From: Thermoprotei archaeon
GTDB taxonomy: Archaea > Thermoproteota > Thermoprotei_A > Sulfolobales > Desulfurococcaceae
DNA length: 49,404 nt
Direction of reading: 5' to 3'
Assembly: GCA_003661825.1 (NCBI GenBank)
Contig: QMWW01000001.1
Location: 1 to 49,404, forward strand
Of this stretch, positions 2,557 through 32,066 are shown piece by piece. The notes beneath the pieces were generated by a model, which saw only the letters and a list, made by a program, of their open reading frames with translations, was not told the DNA's origin and searched no databases. The translations under genes and the position numbers were made by a program. Position 1 is the stretch's first letter, and every line of letters starts with the position of its first letter.

Positions 2557-2708
2557 TCTCTAGTCCGTATAAAGCCGTCTACAACTATAAAATGCCGTGT
2601 TTATAAACTATTAAGTTTTGTTCTAGGCCCTGTTTCCTAAAGACCTAATCGCGGCTAAGACTTAATATCAAAGCCGTACTATACACTTCATTAAGGTGTA
2701 GCGTAGAG

Positions 2709-3584
2709 TTGGTTGACACTGGCTGGTTAGGTATAGATATTATCGGTTTCCTCTTCTGGATAGTCCTGTTATATGCTCTGATACATCCACAGCTCCGGAT
2801 GAGGAGTTTACAGCACGCAAGGCTACACATCATACAGAGCATTGAGAGAAAGTACGGCTGGCGCGTTATAACGATGATACACCGCCAGGAGAGGATAGGG
2901 TTCTTCGGCATACCGGTCTACAGGTACATAGACATAGAGGATTCAGAAGCTATACTGAGAGCTATAAGGAGTACACCGCCAGAACAACCTATAGCTCTGA
3001 TCCTACATACCCCTGGAGGACTAGTGCTAGCTGCTTCCCAGATAGCTATGGCTCTAAAGAAGCATAAAGGCGAGAAGATAGTTATAATCCCCCACTACGC
3101 TATGAGCGGAGGCACCCTTGTAGCACTCGCAGCCGATAAGATAATAATGGATCCAGACGCTGTCCTAGGACCTCTAGATCCCCAGCTACAGACCCCCAAG
3201 GGAGTGTTTCCAGCGCCCTCTCTAATCAAGATAGCTAGAACCAAGGGAAATAAGGCAAGCGATACAACGCTGATATACGCTGATGTAGCCGAGAAAGCTC
3301 TCAGCGAAATCCAGGAGATAATAGTGTATTTATTAAAAGACAGGCTCGGAGAAGATAAAGCGAGAGAAATAGCTAGGAAGTTGACCGAAGGCTACTATAC
3401 ACACGACTACCCAATAACAGCTGAGGAAGCCAAGGCTATGGGTCTTCCAGTATCGACAGATGTACCGCCAGAAATCTACGAGTTAATGGAGCTCTATCCC
3501 CAGGCAATACAGCAGAGACCAGGCGTCGAATATCTACCTAGGCCGCAAATACCCTACTACCATCACAGAGGTAGGGAGAGGTAG
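2709..3584 (+). CDS. SDH-family / ClpP-fold serine protease (SppA/NfeD-like), membrane anchored
   Basis: 291-aa ORF with a TTG start and an N-terminal TM helix. Motifs LILHTPGG and HYAMSGGTLVALAAD are typical of Clp-fold serine proteases. Confidence 0.75.
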   Translation: MVDTGWLGIDIIGFLFWIVLLYALIHPQLRMRSLQHARLHIIQSIERKYGWRVITMIHRQERIGFFGIPVYRYIDIEDSEAILRAIRSTPPEQPIALILHTPGGLVLAASQIAMALKKHKGEKIVIIPHYAMSGGTLVALAADKIIMDPDAVLGPLDPQLQTPKGVFPAPSLIKIARTKGNKASDTTLIYADVAEKALSEIQEIIVYLLKDRLGEDKAREIARKLTEGYYTHDYPITAEEAKAMGLPVSTDVPPEIYELMELYPQAIQQRPGVEYLPRPQIPYYHHRGRER

Positions 3585-15293: not shown

Positions 15294-15682
15294 ACACGCT
15301 CATAGCGTTAAACATCATAGCTGTGTCGATGATCGTTAACATAGCTATAGCGGTCTACGGCATCGTTAAGAAGCCCAGTATGGTGAAGAAGATCATCTCA
15401 CTAGGGATTCTAAGCGACACCGTATGCCTTTTAGCTGTCTACATGGGGTTTACAGCTACGTCTCCCCACCCACCACTCTACGCCTCCGGCTACGGAGCTG
15501 GTAGAGGAGTCGACCCCGTTGTCCAAGCATTTGTCTTAACGGCGATCGTGATAGCCCTAGCGTTTACCGTGTTCTTAGCTACAATTACCCTCAGGATGTA
15601 CGAGGTTGCGAATTCAACCGATCTACATGAGTTGCTAAAACTCGAGATAGCGTCTGAGGAAATAGAGCAGCTGGAGGAATGA
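15290..15682 (+). CDS. mrpC: MnhC/MrpC (NuoK-like) antiporter subunit
   Basis: 130-aa protein with 3 TM helices and a DPVVQAFVLTAIVIALAF motif. It has 4-nt overlaps with both neighbouring genes. Confidence 0.75.
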   Translation: MNTLIALNIIAVSMIVNIAIAVYGIVKKPSMVKKIISLGILSDTVCLLAVYMGFTATSPHPPLYASGYGAGRGVDPVVQAFVLTAIVIALAFTVFLATITLRMYEVANSTDLHELLKLEIASEEIEQLEE

Positions 15683-17286
15683 AGAGTTTGCATGGATTAT
15701 CACAGGTACTAGGCTTTACTCCTCTAGTACCGGTTGCTGCTGCAACGCTTATACTACTGATCTATGTTCTAAAGCTAAGGGATAGAACCCTGTATAATTT
15801 AGTGCTTCTCGTTGGCTCTAGCCTAACCGCGGCGTCTACACTAGTAGTACTAAGCGAGACTATCTACGGAGGCTTTGCGTGGTACTGCTTCGGTGGATGG
15901 GGTGCTCCACTAGGGATCTGCTACTACGCCGACGAGCTGAGCGCTTATTACGCCGCAGTAACTAGCGCTGTTTTCACCGCTGTAGCAGTATATGCTGTCT
16001 GGTACTCGAGGCACGTAAAGCACACCGCCCTACTTTATGTTCTGCTACTGCTTCACTTAAGCGGATTACTAGCAGTATACTATACGGTTGATCTATTCAA
16101 CTTATTTGTCTCACTAGAGCTAGTGGGTATAACTGGGTATAGCCTCGTATCGTTCTACCACTACAGGGCTAAAGCGCTAGTAGCTGCAGCTAGATACGCT
16201 GTGGCTGGAGGCCTTATGACCACTTTCCTCCTACTAGGCGTACTCCTAATCTATACCGCCACCGGCGCTGTCAATATCGGCGTACTCGGAGCTAAGCTAT
16301 CCGTAGCATGGTCTCCCCCCGATCAGATGGGGTTTTTCAATAAAAACCTCTACGCTGACACGAGCCTAGTTATAATAGCTATTGCAATGATCCTATGGAC
16401 AGCTCTATTCATATCGGCTATCTTTCCAAACCACTTCTGGCTACCGGATGCACACAGCGAAGCCCCAGTACCTGTGTCGGCGGTGTTGTCGGGTTTAACT
16501 ACTGCGATGGGGTTCTACGTACTAGCAAGGATAGCCTATACTGTCCTCGCAGAAAGCGTATTAGCAGGTTTTCTCTCCACGCTACTCCCCGTTATCGGCT
16601 TCCTCGGTATAGTGAGCGTTTTCTATGGAGCGATTATGATCGGGGTAGAGGACGACGTTAAGAGGATCTTAGCGTACAGCACTATACTTAACAATGGCTA
16701 CATCTTAATGGGGTTAAGCCAGGGTACGGCTCTAGGTATAGCCGCCTCGCTATACCACATTCTAAACCATGCTGTAGGAAAAGCGCTCGCATTCCTGTGT
16801 ATAGGGTATATGGTGAGAAGGTATAGGACTAGGAACATATATGCTCTAGAAGGAGCGGGGAGAGCCCAGCCAATAGTAGGTAGCGTACTCGCTTTCGCTC
16901 TCTTACACTTGATAGGGGTTCCACCAACCAGCGGGTTCTTCGGCAAGTTCTACCTATTTAAAGCATTTATAGATGCTGATAACCTAGCATACGCACTAGT
17001 AGTTATAGCGGGCTCGGTTATATCGGCGTATGGGTACATCAGGGTAATGGAGCACACAGTATATGTTTCTAAACCCGAGATCGTTGGGAAAGAGCACTTA
17101 TCAATAATAGTGACTATAACGCTTACGACTCTTTCAACCGTAATACTCTTGCTCGGAATAGCTAATCAGTGGGTAATAGACTACCTTACATATACGGCTT
17201 CGACACTAGTACTTGACAGCACTGTATATATTGAGAGAATATACGGTCTATGCCAGAGCCTACTAAGCACTATTAGTTATCCCTAG
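15679..17286 (+). CDS. mrpD: MnhD/MrpD (NuoM/N-like) antiporter subunit
   Basis: 535-aa polytopic ORF with the motif FWLPDAHSEAPVPVSAVLSG. Confidence 0.85.
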   Translation: MKSLHGLSQVLGFTPLVPVAAATLILLIYVLKLRDRTLYNLVLLVGSSLTAASTLVVLSETIYGGFAWYCFGGWGAPLGICYYADELSAYYAAVTSAVFTAVAVYAVWYSRHVKHTALLYVLLLLHLSGLLAVYYTVDLFNLFVSLELVGITGYSLVSFYHYRAKALVAAARYAVAGGLMTTFLLLGVLLIYTATGAVNIGVLGAKLSVAWSPPDQMGFFNKNLYADTSLVIIAIAMILWTALFISAIFPNHFWLPDAHSEAPVPVSAVLSGLTTAMGFYVLARIAYTVLAESVLAGFLSTLLPVIGFLGIVSVFYGAIMIGVEDDVKRILAYSTILNNGYILMGLSQGTALGIAASLYHILNHAVGKALAFLCIGYMVRRYRTRNIYALEGAGRAQPIVGSVLAFALLHLIGVPPTSGFFGKFYLFKAFIDADNLAYALVVIAGSVISAYGYIRVMEHTVYVSKPEIVGKEHLSIIVTITLTTLSTVILLLGIANQWVIDYLTYTASTLVLDSTVYIERIYGLCQSLLSTISYP

Positions 17287-17338
17287 CACAGCCAGCCATA
17301 CGCGGTCTCCAGGTACTTTAGAGCTATATGAACCCCTA

Positions 17339-18055
17339 CTAGAAGCACTTCATACAAATGCTGTTTAGAACGCATACTTCACAGCGCGGCTTCCTAGCTT
17401 TACAGACTTCTCTAGATAGATCCAGTACTCCTAGGTTGAAGTCCAAAGCTAGATCAGCACTACTCGGCAACAGGCTCAAAGCTAATAAGCGTAGACTATC
17501 GTAGAGTTCCAAAGCCTTCTACTACTATGGAATTAATAGGTAACGCTTAAAGCACTCATTACTCTACTTATCATAATCAACAACGACTTAACACTTGGTC
17601 CTGGCCTAAGCTAGTGATGAGTCAGCGGGGACTGATAGGTGAAGAACCCACCCTTTGCTGATAGCTGTGGAACGAGCCTTTCCAGCGTCAAAGCTATGTC
17701 TCTACATATGTTCATCCTGTTATCCTATGGTTTAGCTCTAGTAGTAGATGTTGTACTGTACCTAGTTTACAGTACGAAGAACTATACTGGGTACTTCTGT
17801 AAAACTGTTGTGGGGACTAGCTAGAATACATAGCCCAGCAGTAGCCTCTGCAGCGGCGTTTAGATACGTAAGGCTTGAGCTAAAATGGTCTATACGCGAT
17901 TGCTTTAGAGGGAGGCCAGGGTATAGCGTTCTTCTCTCTAGCCCCTCTAGTCTTCTACGTTGCTCTATGGGTATCTACGTGTTATCCGTATTGACAACCA
18001 GGTTATTCTATATCAAAGCTCTAGCAAATGCCCTCCAAGTATCTAGACAACACAT
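17339..18055 (-). pseudogene. nth: Decayed endonuclease III / HhH-GPD glycosylase gene
   Basis: One reading frame, read on the mirror copy 31350..32066, carries the family landmarks in canonical order. These are LVVNTDNT (LSxxTxD-like), DAGKARSTA (HhH GxGxxTA-like), VPADS (VDTH-like) and an intact 4Fe-4S loop CKARKPRCEVCVLNSIC (C-x6-C-x2-C-x5-C). The frame is broken by 13 in-frame stops (10 TAG, 3 TAA). Confidence 0.6.
17610..17665 (+). ncRNA. Candidate archaeal C/D-box sRNA (2'-O-methylation guide)
   Basis: Layout: gcta - C box gtgatga (17614..17620) - 11-nt guide - D' ctga (17632..17635) - tag - C' gtgaaga (17639..17645) - 12-nt guide - D ctga (17658..17661) - tagc. The terminal gcta/tagc can form a 4-bp closing stem. 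Confidence 0.55.
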
Positions 18056-18562
18056 ACCCCATAGCGCGTTATCAGCTGTACTGGTGATCCAGCTAGTACT
18101 AGGCTAGTCTCTGCAGTAACTATTAGCGCCTCGTGCGCGCTAGGTGAAGAGATAGTATGGAGGTGTTTTCCCTACAATCTACTCGGTGGAAGCCCCCGTT
18201 TCCTACTACGGTGTGCGGGGCTTCTGGCACTTCTCGACAACCGTCTTCCTAGGATACAATTACCCCACAATCGGGACTTTGGGAATAACGTTCTATACGC
18301 TCCTCCTGACCCCGTAAGCGCCGTCATGGTGATACTAGTTGATAGCGCGTCATCCGCGCTACTGGCTGTATCGTTTCAAAAGCCCTAAACGCTTTGTAGT
18401 CTCTCACCGCTACATCGGCCCCTCTAAAGCCTAGGCTTAGAGAAGTACTAGCTGGTCTTGGAGCGCTCGGCGCGCTTTCCTGGACTGCAATAGCTATTCT
18501 GCTCTACGCGTTCGAGCTAGTACTCGGGGAGCAGAGCACGGAAACACTAGCTGTAGAAGGGC

Positions 18563-19738
18563 TTAAGCCAAGTAAGCGAGAACAAGGGCTATTATGATGA
18601 GAGCTACTCCTACTAGGAATTCTATCGCGTTAGCGTTGTTTCTAAGCCAGTTAGCTATCCTCTTCTCGCGCCCCATAACCGCTACTAGCACGAACAGCAG
18701 AATTAGGGGCGTTACAAACACTACGTTGTATAGCATGATAGCCGGGATCGCTATGAACTCTGGGAAGTCTTTGAGGAAAGCTATGAATAGTACGAGGGGG
18801 CCGGAGGTACATGGGAGGAGGAATATAACTGATATGCTGGATAGTACTAAGGCTACAAAGTACTTATTACCCATGAGCTTGTTCAAGAACCCTAACCTCT
18901 CGCACCACTCGCACTTTAGAGAAGGCATTCTCTCCCTACCCGACCTAACGATCGTGTATATACCTATAGCTAGAGCTAGAGCTATGAACACTATCCTCGG
19001 TATATACGCTGCAACTACTAGTAGCCCCATAGCGAGAGCGAGATAGCCTACATATATTACCATGATAAACAGTACAGGGGGTCCATACAGCCTCTTAGTA
19101 CTGCTTAAACACGTAGCTAGAAAGGCGAAGTATAGCATTAGTGTGCAGGGGTTTACAGAGTCTAGGAGTCCTAGCACTAGTGCAGCCGGCATAACGTTTA
19201 GTATCGAGACTTCGAGTTCCGGCTTCTCGGGCTCCGTTTCGCACCCGCGGCGCAGATAGTATTCGATGAACTCTCTATGGGTTTTATTACCTAGCTCTAT
19301 GTATCCAGCCAGCGTAGTACCACTAGGCGACACCAAGTATATGGGGATCCTGTTCTCGCTGTTAGTCTTCATTAGCTGCTCGAAGAAGCTAGCGTTCTCG
19401 TACTCTCCTATAACTAGAGCTGATACAGTACCATTGTACACGACAAATATCGCTGGGATGTACCCAGGAACTCCTAGACGGACCAGCTCGCTGTACTTCT
19501 CGCTACAAGTATGGTCCTTGTATATCTCGCATGCGAAGAATCTTTGTTCACCGAAGGATTCTATGAGGAACTCCTTCATAGCTCTACAGTGTGGACAAGC
19601 ATCTGCACCGAACATGTAGAAGTATGACGTATTGCTATCCGTAGCGCTTACGATGAGCCAAGCCGTAAATCCTAAGAACAGGGATGCTAAGAGCAGGAGG
19701 TGGTAGGTCATTCTCAGTACTTGGCCCAAAGCCCTCAC
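18563..19738 (-). CDS. Thioredoxin-like domain fused to a DsbD/CcdA-type transmembrane thiol-disulfide transporter
   Basis: N-terminal anchor, then FGADACPHCRAM (CxxC). The membrane domain carries DSVNPCTLMLYF and LLPCTSGPL, the paired PC motifs of CcdA/DsbD. Confidence 0.8.
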   Translation of the reverse strand: MRALGQVLRMTYHLLLLASLFLGFTAWLIVSATDSNTSYFYMFGADACPHCRAMKEFLIESFGEQRFFACEIYKDHTCSEKYSELVRLGVPGYIPAIFVVYNGTVSALVIGEYENASFFEQLMKTNSENRIPIYLVSPSGTTLAGYIELGNKTHREFIEYYLRRGCETEPEKPELEVSILNVMPAALVLGLLDSVNPCTLMLYFAFLATCLSSTKRLYGPPVLFIMVIYVGYLALAMGLLVVAAYIPRIVFIALALAIGIYTIVRSGRERMPSLKCEWCERLGFLNKLMGNKYFVALVLSSISVIFLLPCTSGPLVLFIAFLKDFPEFIAIPAIMLYNVVFVTPLILLFVLVAVMGREKRIANWLRNNANAIEFLVGVALIIIALVLAYLA

Positions 19739-31349: not shown

Positions 31350-32066
31350 ATGTGTTGTCTAGATACTTGGAGGGCATTTGCTAGAGCTTTGATATAGAAT
31401 AACCTGGTTGTCAATACGGATAACACGTAGATACCCATAGAGCAACGTAGAAGACTAGAGGGGCTAGAGAGAAGAACGCTATACCCTGGCCTCCCTCTAA
31501 AGCAATCGCGTATAGACCATTTTAGCTCAAGCCTTACGTATCTAAACGCCGCTGCAGAGGCTACTGCTGGGCTATGTATTCTAGCTAGTCCCCACAACAG
31601 TTTTACAGAAGTACCCAGTATAGTTCTTCGTACTGTAAACTAGGTACAGTACAACATCTACTACTAGAGCTAAACCATAGGATAACAGGATGAACATATG
31701 TAGAGACATAGCTTTGACGCTGGAAAGGCTCGTTCCACAGCTATCAGCAAAGGGTGGGTTCTTCACCTATCAGTCCCCGCTGACTCATCACTAGCTTAGG
31801 CCAGGACCAAGTGTTAAGTCGTTGTTGATTATGATAAGTAGAGTAATGAGTGCTTTAAGCGTTACCTATTAATTCCATAGTAGTAGAAGGCTTTGGAACT
31901 CTACGATAGTCTACGCTTATTAGCTTTGAGCCTGTTGCCGAGTAGTGCTGATCTAGCTTTGGACTTCAACCTAGGAGTACTGGATCTATCTAGAGAAGTC
32001 TGTAAAGCTAGGAAGCCGCGCTGTGAAGTATGCGTTCTAAACAGCATTTGTATGAAGTGCTTCTAG
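31350..32066 (+). pseudogene. nth: Decayed endonuclease III / HhH-GPD gene; mirror copy of 17339..18055
   Basis: I translated this frame manually. It contains 13 in-frame stops and ends ...SREVCKARKPRCEVCVLNSICMKCF followed by TAG at 32064..32066. Confidence 0.6.
31740..31795 (-). ncRNA. Candidate C/D-box sRNA; mirror copy of 17610..17665
   Basis: Exact mirror of the left-arm candidate. Confidence 0.55.

Follow-up and report, generated by a model that had tools for sequence, protein, structure and literature searches.

Positions 17610-17665 on the plus strand of the window (the whole 49,404-nt stretch of DNA that was analysed) probably hold a functional box C/D sRNA gene. Its D guide would act on helix 91 of 23S rRNA, its C'-D half is homologous to sR160 of Ignicoccus hospitalis, its D' target is tentative, and it lies as an island beside the remnant of an nth-like gene; we put the probability of this reading at about 0.82. 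The order read at these positions is gcta-GTGATGA-gtcagcgggga-CTGA-tag-GTGAAGA-acccaccctttg-CTGA-tagc, which confirms every box, spacer and stem half as the initial annotation had placed them. The gene and its parts are as follows.

17610-17665, plus strand: candidate box C/D sRNA gene of 56 nt, with the C'/D half homologous to Ignicoccus hospitalis sR160
17610-17613, plus strand: 5' half of the terminal stem, GCUA, a perfect complement of 17662-17665 and paired in the MFE fold
17614-17620, plus strand: box C, GUGAUGA, a perfect RUGAUGA, with U-G-A-U-G-A invariant in the three-genome alignment
17621-17631, plus strand: D' guide, GUCAGCGGGGA, 11 nt, with G17627 as its +5 nucleotide
17632-17635, plus strand: box D', CUGA, which is CUGA also in G016 and CCGA in G001
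17636-17638, plus strand: D'-C' spacer, UAG, 3 nt, of the K-loop type as judged from the sequence
17639-17645, plus strand: box C', GUGAAGA, with a single deviation at the fifth position
17646-17657, plus strand: D guide, ACCCACCCUUUG, 12 nt, with C17653 as its +5 nucleotide
17658-17661, plus strand: box D, CUGA, invariant in G000, G001 and G016
17662-17665, plus strand: 3' half of the terminal stem, UAGC, the complement of 17610-17613 in the MFE fold

The features that mark membership in the C/D class are present, with box C near the 5' end, box D near the 3' end and the boxes in the order C-D'-C'-D, and the guide lengths of 11 and 12 nt are within the published range of 10-12 nt (PMC4644070). 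The 4-bp GCUA/UAGC terminal stem appears in the MFE fold itself; the kink-turn and the binding of L7Ae are predicted only. Across homologues the fifth position of box C' can be A, C, G or U, so that the box takes the form nUGAnGA, and the D'-C' spacer also varies in the alignment (10-11 nt in homologues versus 3 nt here). The description of this element as a compact archaeal C/D box sRNA is now backed by conservation, by a published homologue verified by RNA-seq, and by a target in the genome's own 23S rRNA.

Conservation carries most of this argument. When 1.35 kb was compared by blastn with 40 relatives, only the sRNA island of ~50-55 nt matched, in G016 and in G001, a genome of the same genus. 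In both, boxes and D guide are wholly or almost unchanged relative to the window copy, and the relatives score 63-71 bits in a CM search. The flanks, on the other hand, align with those of G001 and G016 no better than shuffles do, and an island that is kept while same-genus flanks can no longer be aligned is a signature of purifying selection. At greater distances, the pattern UGAnGA-ACCCRCCCUU-nn-CUGA occurs in 28 of 251 genomes of the order (30 forward matches, versus 0 for a reversed-pattern control), and the half made up of box C', D guide and box D recurs in at least five families of the order. The initial annotation had named conservation of the boxes in relatives as a check on the gene, and the island in G001 and G016 together with the C'-D half in five families answers it in the gene's favour. 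Positions 3-11 of the D guide (CCCACCCUU) are common to the homologues in families f1, f5, f9 and f10, with a few copies one base off, and no constraint is seen at positions 1, 2 and 12; in the sole copy from f4 (ACCUACCCUU), the guide sits in the D' slot. The sR160-type family is patchy, being absent from most f1 genomes searched. One homologue, in G081, is letter-identical to IHOsR160, an sRNA verified by RNA-seq (coverage of 5660 reads) with 23S G2817 as its target (Dennis et al. 2015, BMC Genomics 16:632, PMC4644070, Additional files 1 and 3). The one-mismatch matches in the Sulfolobaceae-size genomes of f13 carry ACCCAACCUUA, which does not fit helix 91 of those genomes (CAAGGGUAGGG), and we treated them as a different sRNA.

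We took as the target criterion a run of at least 9 consecutive Watson-Crick pairs to rRNA or tRNA that covers the +5 position (Dennis et al. 2015, PMC4644070), and the D guide forms such a run through positions 3-11 on the 23S fragment of its own MAG. This fragment, on contig C99, reads ...CCCCCAAGGGUGGGGCUGCCCGCCC..., and guide positions 1 and 3-11 pair with CCAAGGGUGGGG within it, giving 9 consecutive Watson-Crick pairs around +5 and a mismatch at position 2 (U opposite C). The +5 nucleotide lies opposite the first G of AAGGGUGGG, within helix 91, in the register of the sR160-type family. The predicted site would thus be a Gm at E. coli G2543 (pan-archaeal G2817), nine nucleotides before the equivalent of A-loop U2552, and G2817 is the site already published for Ignicoccus hospitalis sR160 and Methanopyrus kandleri sR38 (PMC4644070). 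A 9-bp run is weak when taken alone, as 12-13% of shuffled guides of matched composition do as well on the 16S and 23S set of the family, and the case for this target therefore rests on conservation and not on complementarity by itself. The homologue in G004 forms 11 pairs with G004's own 23S. Most likely, then, the sRNA directs a 2'-O-methyl group onto 23S rRNA beside the A loop.

The exact 11-12-nt targets given by the initial annotation (TCCCCGCTGAC and CAAAGGGTGGGT) are found in the MAG only as the sRNA's own complement, and one 10-mer of them occurs in an unannotated stretch of contig C77. The search of rRNA and tRNA that it had suggested thus succeeded for the D guide, with 9 pairs in 23S helix 91, failed for the full-length targets, and left 16S helix 17 as a tentative best target of the D' guide. 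Two other candidates were rejected. A hairpin resembling 23S helix 66 (UCCCCGCUAGC-CC-GAAAGGGUGUGU) was considered as a joint target of both guides and gave only 8 consecutive pairs with each; for the D guide it was set aside once helix 91 had been fixed by the homologues and the literature. The T and acceptor arms of tRNA-Val and tRNA-Arg (UCCCCGCGGGC), which resemble GC-rich stems of a generic kind, gave 7 consecutive pairs.

The proteins with which such an RNA would work are encoded in the same genome. Fibrillarin (358.6 bits) and Nop5 (255.3 bits) are adjacent on contig C22, and genes of the L7Ae family are present on C3 (best 111.3 bits), all above curated cut-offs. By analogy with known C/D RNPs, the 4-bp stem would close a terminal kink-turn made by boxes C and D, and an internal K-loop would arise from D' and C'; L7Ae would bind both, and Nop5 and fibrillarin would assemble there. 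Each guide would pair with its target RNA, and fibrillarin would 2'-O-methylate the target nucleotide that faces the fifth guide position, counted upstream from D or D'.

The assignment of the D' guide is less firm. Its core GCGGGG is kept in G001 and G016, and the variation falls at positions 1 and 8-10. With 16S and most of 23S missing from the MAG, the D' target was tested on relatives only; in 16S sequences of the family, guide positions 1-9 form 9 consecutive Watson-Crick pairs with helix 17 (UCCCCGCUG). Because 8-9% of composition-matched shuffled guides do equally well, helix 17 is a tentative target, and equally tentative is the methylation site it would imply, the fourth C of UCCCCGC in the 5' strand, opposite +5. 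The D' guide may also be an orphan guide, and it appears, tentatively, to be specific to the genus-level lineage of G000, G001 and G016. Helix 89 of 23S rRNA (ACCCCGCGGUU, invariant in 26 genomes of the family) was rejected as a D' target, with only 6 consecutive pairs to the window guide; it fits the D' guide of G001 with 9 Watson-Crick and 2 GU pairs.

A possible history, which we offer as speculative and think somewhat doubtful, is that an ancestral sR160-type RNA kept its helix-91 guide and swapped its D' guide for one that has the GCGGGG core, pairs with 16S helix 17 along its 5' strand and tracks the variable apex of that helix (guide positions 8-10 differ among G000, G001 and G016). If true, the swapped guide would make one sRNA bridge the RNAs of both ribosomal subunits, and would add a methylation site at about 16S C451 (pan-archaeal numbering), which was unpredicted in the seven species surveyed in 2015. 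Pairing with helix 17 predicts the apices CCCCGCUGA(C) for the window genome, CCCCGCAGU for G001 and CCCCGCUUU for G016. Were the family-majority apex CCCCGCUGUA present in all three, the 9-bp duplex of the window guide would be intact and the guides of G001 and G016 would be orphans.

The surroundings of the sRNA, and its second copy in the window, can be listed as follows.

17339-17518, minus strand: HhH-GPD/endonuclease III-like 3' remnant, the last ~55 codons with a 4Fe-4S Cys motif, lying antisense to the sRNA with 91 nt between it and the sRNA's 5' end
17519-18562, no strand: ~1 kb around the sRNA that is without a credible ORF in the ORF lists, with nothing recognisable except the sRNA
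31740-31795, minus strand: the same sRNA in the second palindrome arm, identical in sequence and probably no separate gene

The host is a hyperthermophilic archaeon of the same order as Ignicoccus hospitalis, with DNA from hydrothermal-vent and sediment metagenomes; among the sequencing runs listed as containing the window DNA, two are DNA runs and none is an RNA run. As assembled, the window as a whole is a perfect palindrome, with arms 1-24702 and 24703-49404 that are 100% complementary and 0 nt between them. The mirror copy reported in the initial annotation therefore exists, but only as part of the palindrome's second arm and probably not as an independent gene. Downstream of the sRNA, the fold of 17666-18562 (z=-0.44) shows no sign of a second structured RNA, and Rfam at E<=1 gives no match in 17950-18650. 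Over 17666-18562 the remnants of a G001 ABC permease are not significant (E=0.11) and the methyltransferase of G016 has no match at E<=1. A 10-bp inverted repeat that brackets the sRNA (17518-27 and 17739-48) is no more than chance would give, and it is not a repeated element.

This setting is one ground for the most probable of the alternatives, in which the sRNA is a decaying relic, a once-functional sR160-type gene now silent and out of use, stranded with the nth remnant in degraded DNA. About 1.2 kb of decayed DNA without an intact gene surrounds it, no clear archaeal promoter element was identified upstream, and the divergence of the D' guide at positions 1 and 8-10 among the three orthologues and the patchiness of the family fit the same picture, as does the mismatch at position 2 of the D guide. 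That position, however, varies freely in the homologues, those of the RNA-seq-verified Ignicoccus hospitalis sR160 family included, and all four boxes, the terminal stem and the 9-nt guide core are intact although the same-genus flanks have become unalignable. We therefore regard decay as improbable and a functional gene as the better reading.

A second alternative gives the RNA a role towards nth, either as an antisense or regulatory RNA on an nth-like transcript or as a sequence that doubles as (former) coding sequence for the HhH and catalytic-Asp region. The sRNA does run antisense to the remnant of nth, the G001 copy is divergent from an intact nth orthologue and situated 238 nt upstream of that gene, and antisense overlaps of sRNA genes are known in Pyrobaculum (PMC6009581). 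The extent of the recognisable nth argues against such a role. With the G001 orthologue as query, tblastn recovers residues 151-205 only (44% identity, E=8e-14); Pfam finds EndIII_4Fe-2S in the remnant (E=1.2e-6), which is also its only match on the read-through frame (residues 218-234), and an HMM of 12 nth orthologues, run at --max, aligns positions 156-205 only. Recognisable nth is thus confined to the C-terminal ~50-55 codons at 17339-17509 and stops ~100 nt short of the sRNA, and neither Pfam on the read-through nor the orthologue HMM at --max gives, in any frame, an HhH-GPD signal across the sRNA or 5' to it. These results give no support to the initial annotation's placement of the sRNA over the HhH/VDTH part of an nth pseudogene. 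One minus-strand frame at the sRNA does read DAGKARSTA...SVPADSSLA, but the peptide SVPADSSLA, with its VPADS motif, is what box C and the D' guide of the sRNA itself spell when read in reverse complement, and the G001 copy, which lies outside the intact nth, reads a similar SDPAVSSL when its reverse complement is translated by hand. The nth frame proposed earlier holds 13 stops in 239 codons, by rough estimate about what a random frame at such G+C content would hold. No nth gene lies within the 3-kb loci of G016 and the homologues in other families, the intact nth of G001, the single same-genus genome, carries no sRNA at its HhH region, and the nth here is broken, which leaves nothing to regulate. 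A role towards nth is thus very unlikely; on the favoured reading the sRNA gene is an island preserved by selection next to what is left of the 3' end of a decayed nth-like gene, and does not belong to nth. With flank alignments to G001 and G016 at the level of shuffles, we can only infer that nth lost its 5' part to a deletion.

Eight Rfam C/D box models match at the same place and strand, the best four over the whole length, led by sR28 (27.7 bits, E=3.3e-5) and snoPyro_CD (26.8 bits), and all 8 score below gathering. At gathering thresholds Rfam gives no match anywhere in the window and, at 10 homologue loci, only a tRNA and an rRNA end; Rfam has no family for the sR160-type guide. A strict regex for the architecture finds 4 matches in the 1.12-Mb MAG versus 0 in each of 20 Markov shuffles, which, with the Rfam E-value, supports the earlier judgement that a chance origin of the full design was unlikely. 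The short box motifs and the sub-gathering scores are what could be said for a fortuitous likeness to C/D RNAs in DNA that holds no RNA gene, an explanation already effectively refuted by the empty shuffled genomes, the isolated island kept in relatives, the reversed-pattern control (0 versus 30 forward matches in 251 genomes) and the homologue letter-identical to a published, sequenced sRNA.

The sRNA is an ordinary archaeal C/D box gene. Current understanding is unchanged: in hyperthermophilic archaea such genes number roughly a hundred, and helices 90-93 of 23S rRNA are a known methylation hotspot. Modifications in H90-92 were reportedly mapped by Hansen et al. in 2002. What is added, for an uncultured vent archaeon, is one confidently assigned guide RNA together with a predicted site of rRNA methylation, the 23S G that corresponds to E. 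coli G2543, by the peptidyl transferase A loop. The sR160-type guide proves to occur in five or more families of the order even though it is without an Rfam model. With one guide frozen and the other apparently replaced, the gene would be a clean case of modular sRNA evolution, and it is the only conserved element that survives in a kilobase of decayed DNA.

Among known systems, Ignicoccus hospitalis sR160 shares with the window sRNA the nUGAnGA form of box C', the D guide core ACCCACCCUU, box D as CUGA, the size (~56-65 nt), the box order and the register, which puts +5 at G2817 of 23S helix 91 (E. coli G2543). It differs in the D' guide, which is GACCUU(U/A)GGG in Ignicoccus hospitalis, G004, G003 and f9 and nnnnGCGGGGn in the window, G001 and G016. 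The published target of the Ignicoccus hospitalis D' guide is 23S U2556 in alignment numbering (PMC4644070), and the D' guide of G004 forms 11 Watson-Crick pairs with 23S GCCCAAAGGUC; because the window carries GUCAGCGGGGA in place of this guide, only the C'-D half is homologous. Guide positions 1-2 of the window copy are GU and not GG, giving 9 rather than 11 consecutive pairs, its D'-C' spacer is 3 nt, and the genomic context is different. The D guide of Methanopyrus kandleri sR38 also contains ACCCACCCUU and has 23S G2817 as its predicted target, but this is a distant euryarchaeon, in which the D' guide targets 23S G2736 and box D is CCGA (PMC4644070). The Pyrococcus models sR28 (RF01136) and snoPyro_CD (RF00095) resemble the window sRNA in box arrangement, spacing and length, matching end to end at 17610-17664, but their guides are unrelated and the scores fall short of gathering (27.7 versus 39 bits and 26.8 versus 45 bits), so that the matches are at the level of architecture and indicate no family membership. 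In Pyrobaculum, C/D sRNAs overlap or abut protein genes and orphan guides occur (Lui et al. 2018, NAR 46:5678, PMC6009581). The neighbour in the window is instead a dead remnant, with no demonstrable overlap with recognisable coding sequence, but the window sRNA shares with those of Pyrobaculum a dynamic position relative to neighbouring genes and a pattern in which one guide is kept as the other diverges or its target is lost.

On sequence grounds, the stretch at 17610-17665 holds a genuine C/D box sRNA gene, a new member of an sR160-type family that has no Rfam model. The initial annotation was right to identify it as a C/D sRNA, given its architecture compared with shuffled genomes, its conservation and its link to IHOsR160 (sR160), a C/D sRNA of Ignicoccus hospitalis published in Dennis et al. 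2015 (PMC4644070). The layout of boxes, guides, spacer and stem reads exactly as first described:

17610-17665, + strand, C/D sRNA: gcta-GTGATGA-gtcagcgggga-CTGA-tag-GTGAAGA-acccaccctttg-CTGA-tagc

A strict regular expression for the order C-guide-D'-spacer-C'-guide-D matched 4 sites in the MAG (the palindrome of the window counted once) and 0 sites in 20 Markov-shuffled genomes. When 17300-18000 was scanned with Rfam at permissive settings, eight C/D box families matched, every one on the + strand, with alignments that start at 17610-17611 except for a weak sR48 match at 17632, and the top four models aligned across their full length (sR28, 27.7 bits, E = 3.3e-5; snoPyro_CD, 26.8 bits, E = 0.0023). 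All eight scores lie below their gathering scores and the gathering-level scan gave no match; the C/D architecture is thus recognised by Rfam models, yet the sRNA is covered by no Rfam family. The fold is not significant (MFE -17 kcal/mol, z = -0.99), and intramolecular pairing is possible between 17621-17630 and 17651-17662, that is, between GUCAGCGGGG of the D' guide and CCCUUUGCUGAU, which comprises the 3' end of the D guide and box D.

Such an sRNA is an ordinary gene for a hyperthermophilic archaeon, and the MAG encodes the methylation machinery together with other C/D candidates:

C22:9249-9926, fibrillarin (358.6 bits)
C22:10085-10762, Nop5, adjoining fibrillarin (255.3 bits)
C3, two L7Ae-family genes
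C44:6173, + strand, C/D sRNA candidate
C137:783, - strand, C/D sRNA candidate whose D guide GGGAUCAACCGG is that of Ignicoccus sR155
C140:578, - strand, C/D sRNA candidate resembling Ignicoccus sR422 (Dennis et al. list, PMC4644070)
C148:3295-3350, - strand, C/D sRNA candidate also found by covariance model

The mirror copy noted at 31740-31795 is indeed identical in sequence, but it is probably not an independent second copy, since the window, the whole of contig C1 in a MAG of 1.15 Mb, 156 contigs and 78.6% completeness, is a perfect palindrome (arms 1-24702 and 24703-49404, 100% complementary, no spacer, axis 24702/24703). Each feature of the window therefore appears twice, only 24.7 kb is unique, and the sRNA is in all likelihood single-copy. 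The inverted duplication looks more like an assembly or amplification fold-back than biology.

Using 1.35 kb around the sRNA as a blastn query against 40 relatives, we obtained matches at the sRNA in G016 (79% over 48 nt) and in the same-genus genome G001 (73% over 51 nt), and outside it nothing but two matches of 25-29 nt with borderline E-values; in alignments to G001 and G016, the flanks on both sides are no better than shuffled sequence. The homologues read AUGAUGA-gaaagcggggc-CUGA-(10 nt)-AUGAAGA-acccacccuuug-CUGA in G016 and GUGAUGA-gacugcggggu-CCGA-(11 nt)-GUGACGA-acccacccuuua-CUGA in G001. Boxes and D guide are kept among the three, while the D' guide has mostly diverged, retaining only a GCGGGG core and a 5' G. 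With a sequence-only covariance model the three sRNAs reach 63-71 bits, and weaker matches appear in three further relatives (G004, G003 and G009).

We searched 251 genomes of the order for the C'/D half (pattern TGANGA-ACCCRCCCTT-NN-CTGA, at most 1 mismatch) and found it in 28, and the reversed-pattern control gave 0 matches in the same genomes. Members occur in families f1, f5, f9 and f10, with one permuted copy in f4. Guide positions 3-11 (CCCACCCUU) are common to most copies, a few having one-base differences there, and positions 1, 2 and 12 vary freely. The D' guides sort into classes by lineage:

GACCUU(U/A)GGG: f9, f10, G004 and G003
AGAAUGGGAAGAG: f5
nnnnGCGGGGn: the present MAG, G001 and G016

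Matches in family f13 (L071-L079) have the guide ACCCAACCUUA in the D' slot; this guide does not fit helix 91 of the same genomes, and the matches were set aside as a different sRNA. In these loci and in L057 (G027) the look-alike guide stands in the order UGAAGA-guide-CUGA-nn-GUGAUGA, so that the guide module appears permuted relative to the sRNA of the window. In the Ignicoccus family f10, one homologue (L064 of G033, 1-399, - strand) lies about 1.1 kb upstream of a 23S 5' end on the same strand, and in I. hospitalis (L063) a tRNA lies 3' of the sRNA, also on the same strand.

The match in the complete 1.3-Mb genome G081 (C1:1219592-1219613, - strand) belongs to an sRNA letter-identical to IHOsR160, which is listed at position 1219644 on the negative strand with a coverage of 5660 reads in a catalogue built from RNA-seq (PMC4644070, Additional file 1). 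The published targets of sR160 are 23S G2817 and U2556, and G2817 is also assigned to Methanopyrus kandleri sR38 (PMC4644070), whose D guide likewise contains ACCCACCCUU. The published 23S alignment places its labels I160 and K38 over ...CCCCCAAGGGUGGGGCUGCCCGCCC... (PMC4644070). Counting from the start of the alignment block, G2817 is the first G of AAGGG. With C2830 equal to E. coli C2556, an offset of 274, this G corresponds to E. coli G2543; it belongs to helix 91, precedes the equivalent of A-loop U2552 by nine nucleotides and lies within helices 90-93, a methylation hotspot (PMC4644070).

Covariance model searches of the MAG found neither 16S nor 23S; blastn with a relative's 23S as query located a 3' fragment at the end of C99 that matches 2692-3099 of the G004 23S at 87% identity and reads ...GGGGGUGCAGCAGCCCCCAAGGGUGGGGCUGCCCGCCCAUUAAAGGGG... 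When the D guide, 3'-GUUUCCCACCCA-5', is set against CCAAGGGUGGGG, position 1 is paired, position 2 is mismatched (U opposite C), positions 3-11 form nine consecutive Watson-Crick pairs that include +5 (the fifth guide position upstream of box D or D'), and position 12 is mismatched. The exact targets predicted in the initial annotation were wrong. Published work asks for nine or more consecutive Watson-Crick pairs across +5 (PMC4644070), and this site has nine. The G004 homologue (ACCCACCCUUGG) forms 11 consecutive pairs with its own 23S. Complementarity by itself is not strong evidence: when D guides are shuffled at matched composition, 12-13% of them get to 9 bp on the family 16S and 23S set as well. 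The case is carried by the paired positions being exactly those conserved across five families, and by guide and target having already been assigned in two RNA-seq-supported species. From pairing and conservation we predict that the D guide very probably serves to 2'-O-methylate the 23S G that corresponds to E. coli G2543.

23S 3'-end fragments lie at two places in the MAG (C99:4199-4625 and C25:1-196, 87% and 90% identical to G004), which suggests either a second rRNA copy or a fragment that strayed into the bin from some other organism. Several members of the family have intron-like 23S insertions at the helix 91/92 junction or beside it (L031 of G006, L036 of G066, L046 of G009, L047 of G044, L042 of G017 and L045 of G054), some beginning directly after ...AAGGG(U/C)GGGGCU, within a few nucleotides of the site that the D guide pairs with.

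For the D' guide, GUCAGCGGGGA, several GC-rich sequences come close to a match; the best of them is the 5' strand of 16S helix 17, UCCCCGCUG(UA), with nine consecutive pairs at positions 1-9. The full 11-mer UCCCCGCUGUA is present in 24/29 family 16S sequences, and +5 falls on the fourth C of the site, about C451 in pan-archaeal numbering; no guide is listed for 16S C448-G452, and nearby G442 and U446 are predicted sites (PMC4644070). The hairpin apex varies in the family (UGU, UCU, UUU, CGU), and the G016 guide would form nine pairs with the UUU variant of G054, which hints that the variable guide positions 8-10 may track the variable target. We propose helix 17 only tentatively as the target of this lineage-specific guide, since 8-9% of shuffled guides match the result, the pairing was judged on relatives' 16S (those of the MAG, G001 and G016 are all missing), and alternatives offer 6-8 consecutive pairs (a 23S helix-66-like hairpin with 8; helix 89, which better fits the G001 guide; tRNA T/acceptor arms). 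There would be nothing unusual in a D' guide that is an orphan, as about one-third of catalogued archaeal sRNAs have no significant complementarity to 16S or 23S rRNA (PMC4644070).

The sRNA lies in a gap in which ORF lists contain no credible ORF:

15679-17286, + strand, MrpD-like gene
17339-17518, - strand, remnant of nth (HhH-GPD/endonuclease III-like gene), 59 uninterrupted residues ending in C-x6-C-x2-C-x5-C
18563-19738, - strand, DsbD-like gene

The view that the sRNA is embedded in the HhH/VDTH region of nth was not borne out, as only a C-terminal remnant is recognisable. This remnant matches Pfam EndIII_4Fe-2S and, over residues 151-205, the intact HhH-GPD protein that G001 encodes (206 aa; 44% identity, E = 8e-14). 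With X at stops, the originally proposed frame matched in Pfam the Fe-S motif and nothing further upstream, and an HMM from 12 orthologues with all filters off aligned at its positions 156-205 only. That frame has 13 stops in 239 codons, close to a random frame (a rough estimate, not computed, of ~5-6% of codons at this G+C content), and zero in the last 59 codons, so decay is not uniform. 'SVPADSSLA', taken for the VDTH motif, is what box D', the D' guide and box C spell when read in antisense; hand translation of the G001 sRNA's reverse complement gives 'SDPAVSSL', and that sRNA lies 238 nt outside an intact nth. On the most economical reading, the common ancestor with G001 would have had the sRNA on the upstream side of nth, the two being divergent, and the 5' three-quarters of nth would then have been deleted or overwritten in the present lineage, so that sRNA and 3' remnant now stand 91 nt apart, their relative orientation unchanged. 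We infer this arrangement and loss, since the flanks can no longer be aligned.

Elsewhere in the gap, no Rfam model matched and the folding was not unusual. A perfect 10-bp inverted repeat (TCTACTACTA / TAGTAGTAGA, 17518-17527 and 17739-17748; by estimate ~0.3 such pairs expected by chance) flanks the sRNA and starts where the remnant frame ends; the segment it encloses is not repeated elsewhere in the MAG. G016 has the DsbD-like gene in common as neighbour, about 1 kb from its sRNA, and homologues in other families have neither nth nor the DsbD-like gene in common. These changing neighbours of sR160-type homologues agree with the mobile genomic positions of Pyrobaculum sRNAs (PMC6009581).
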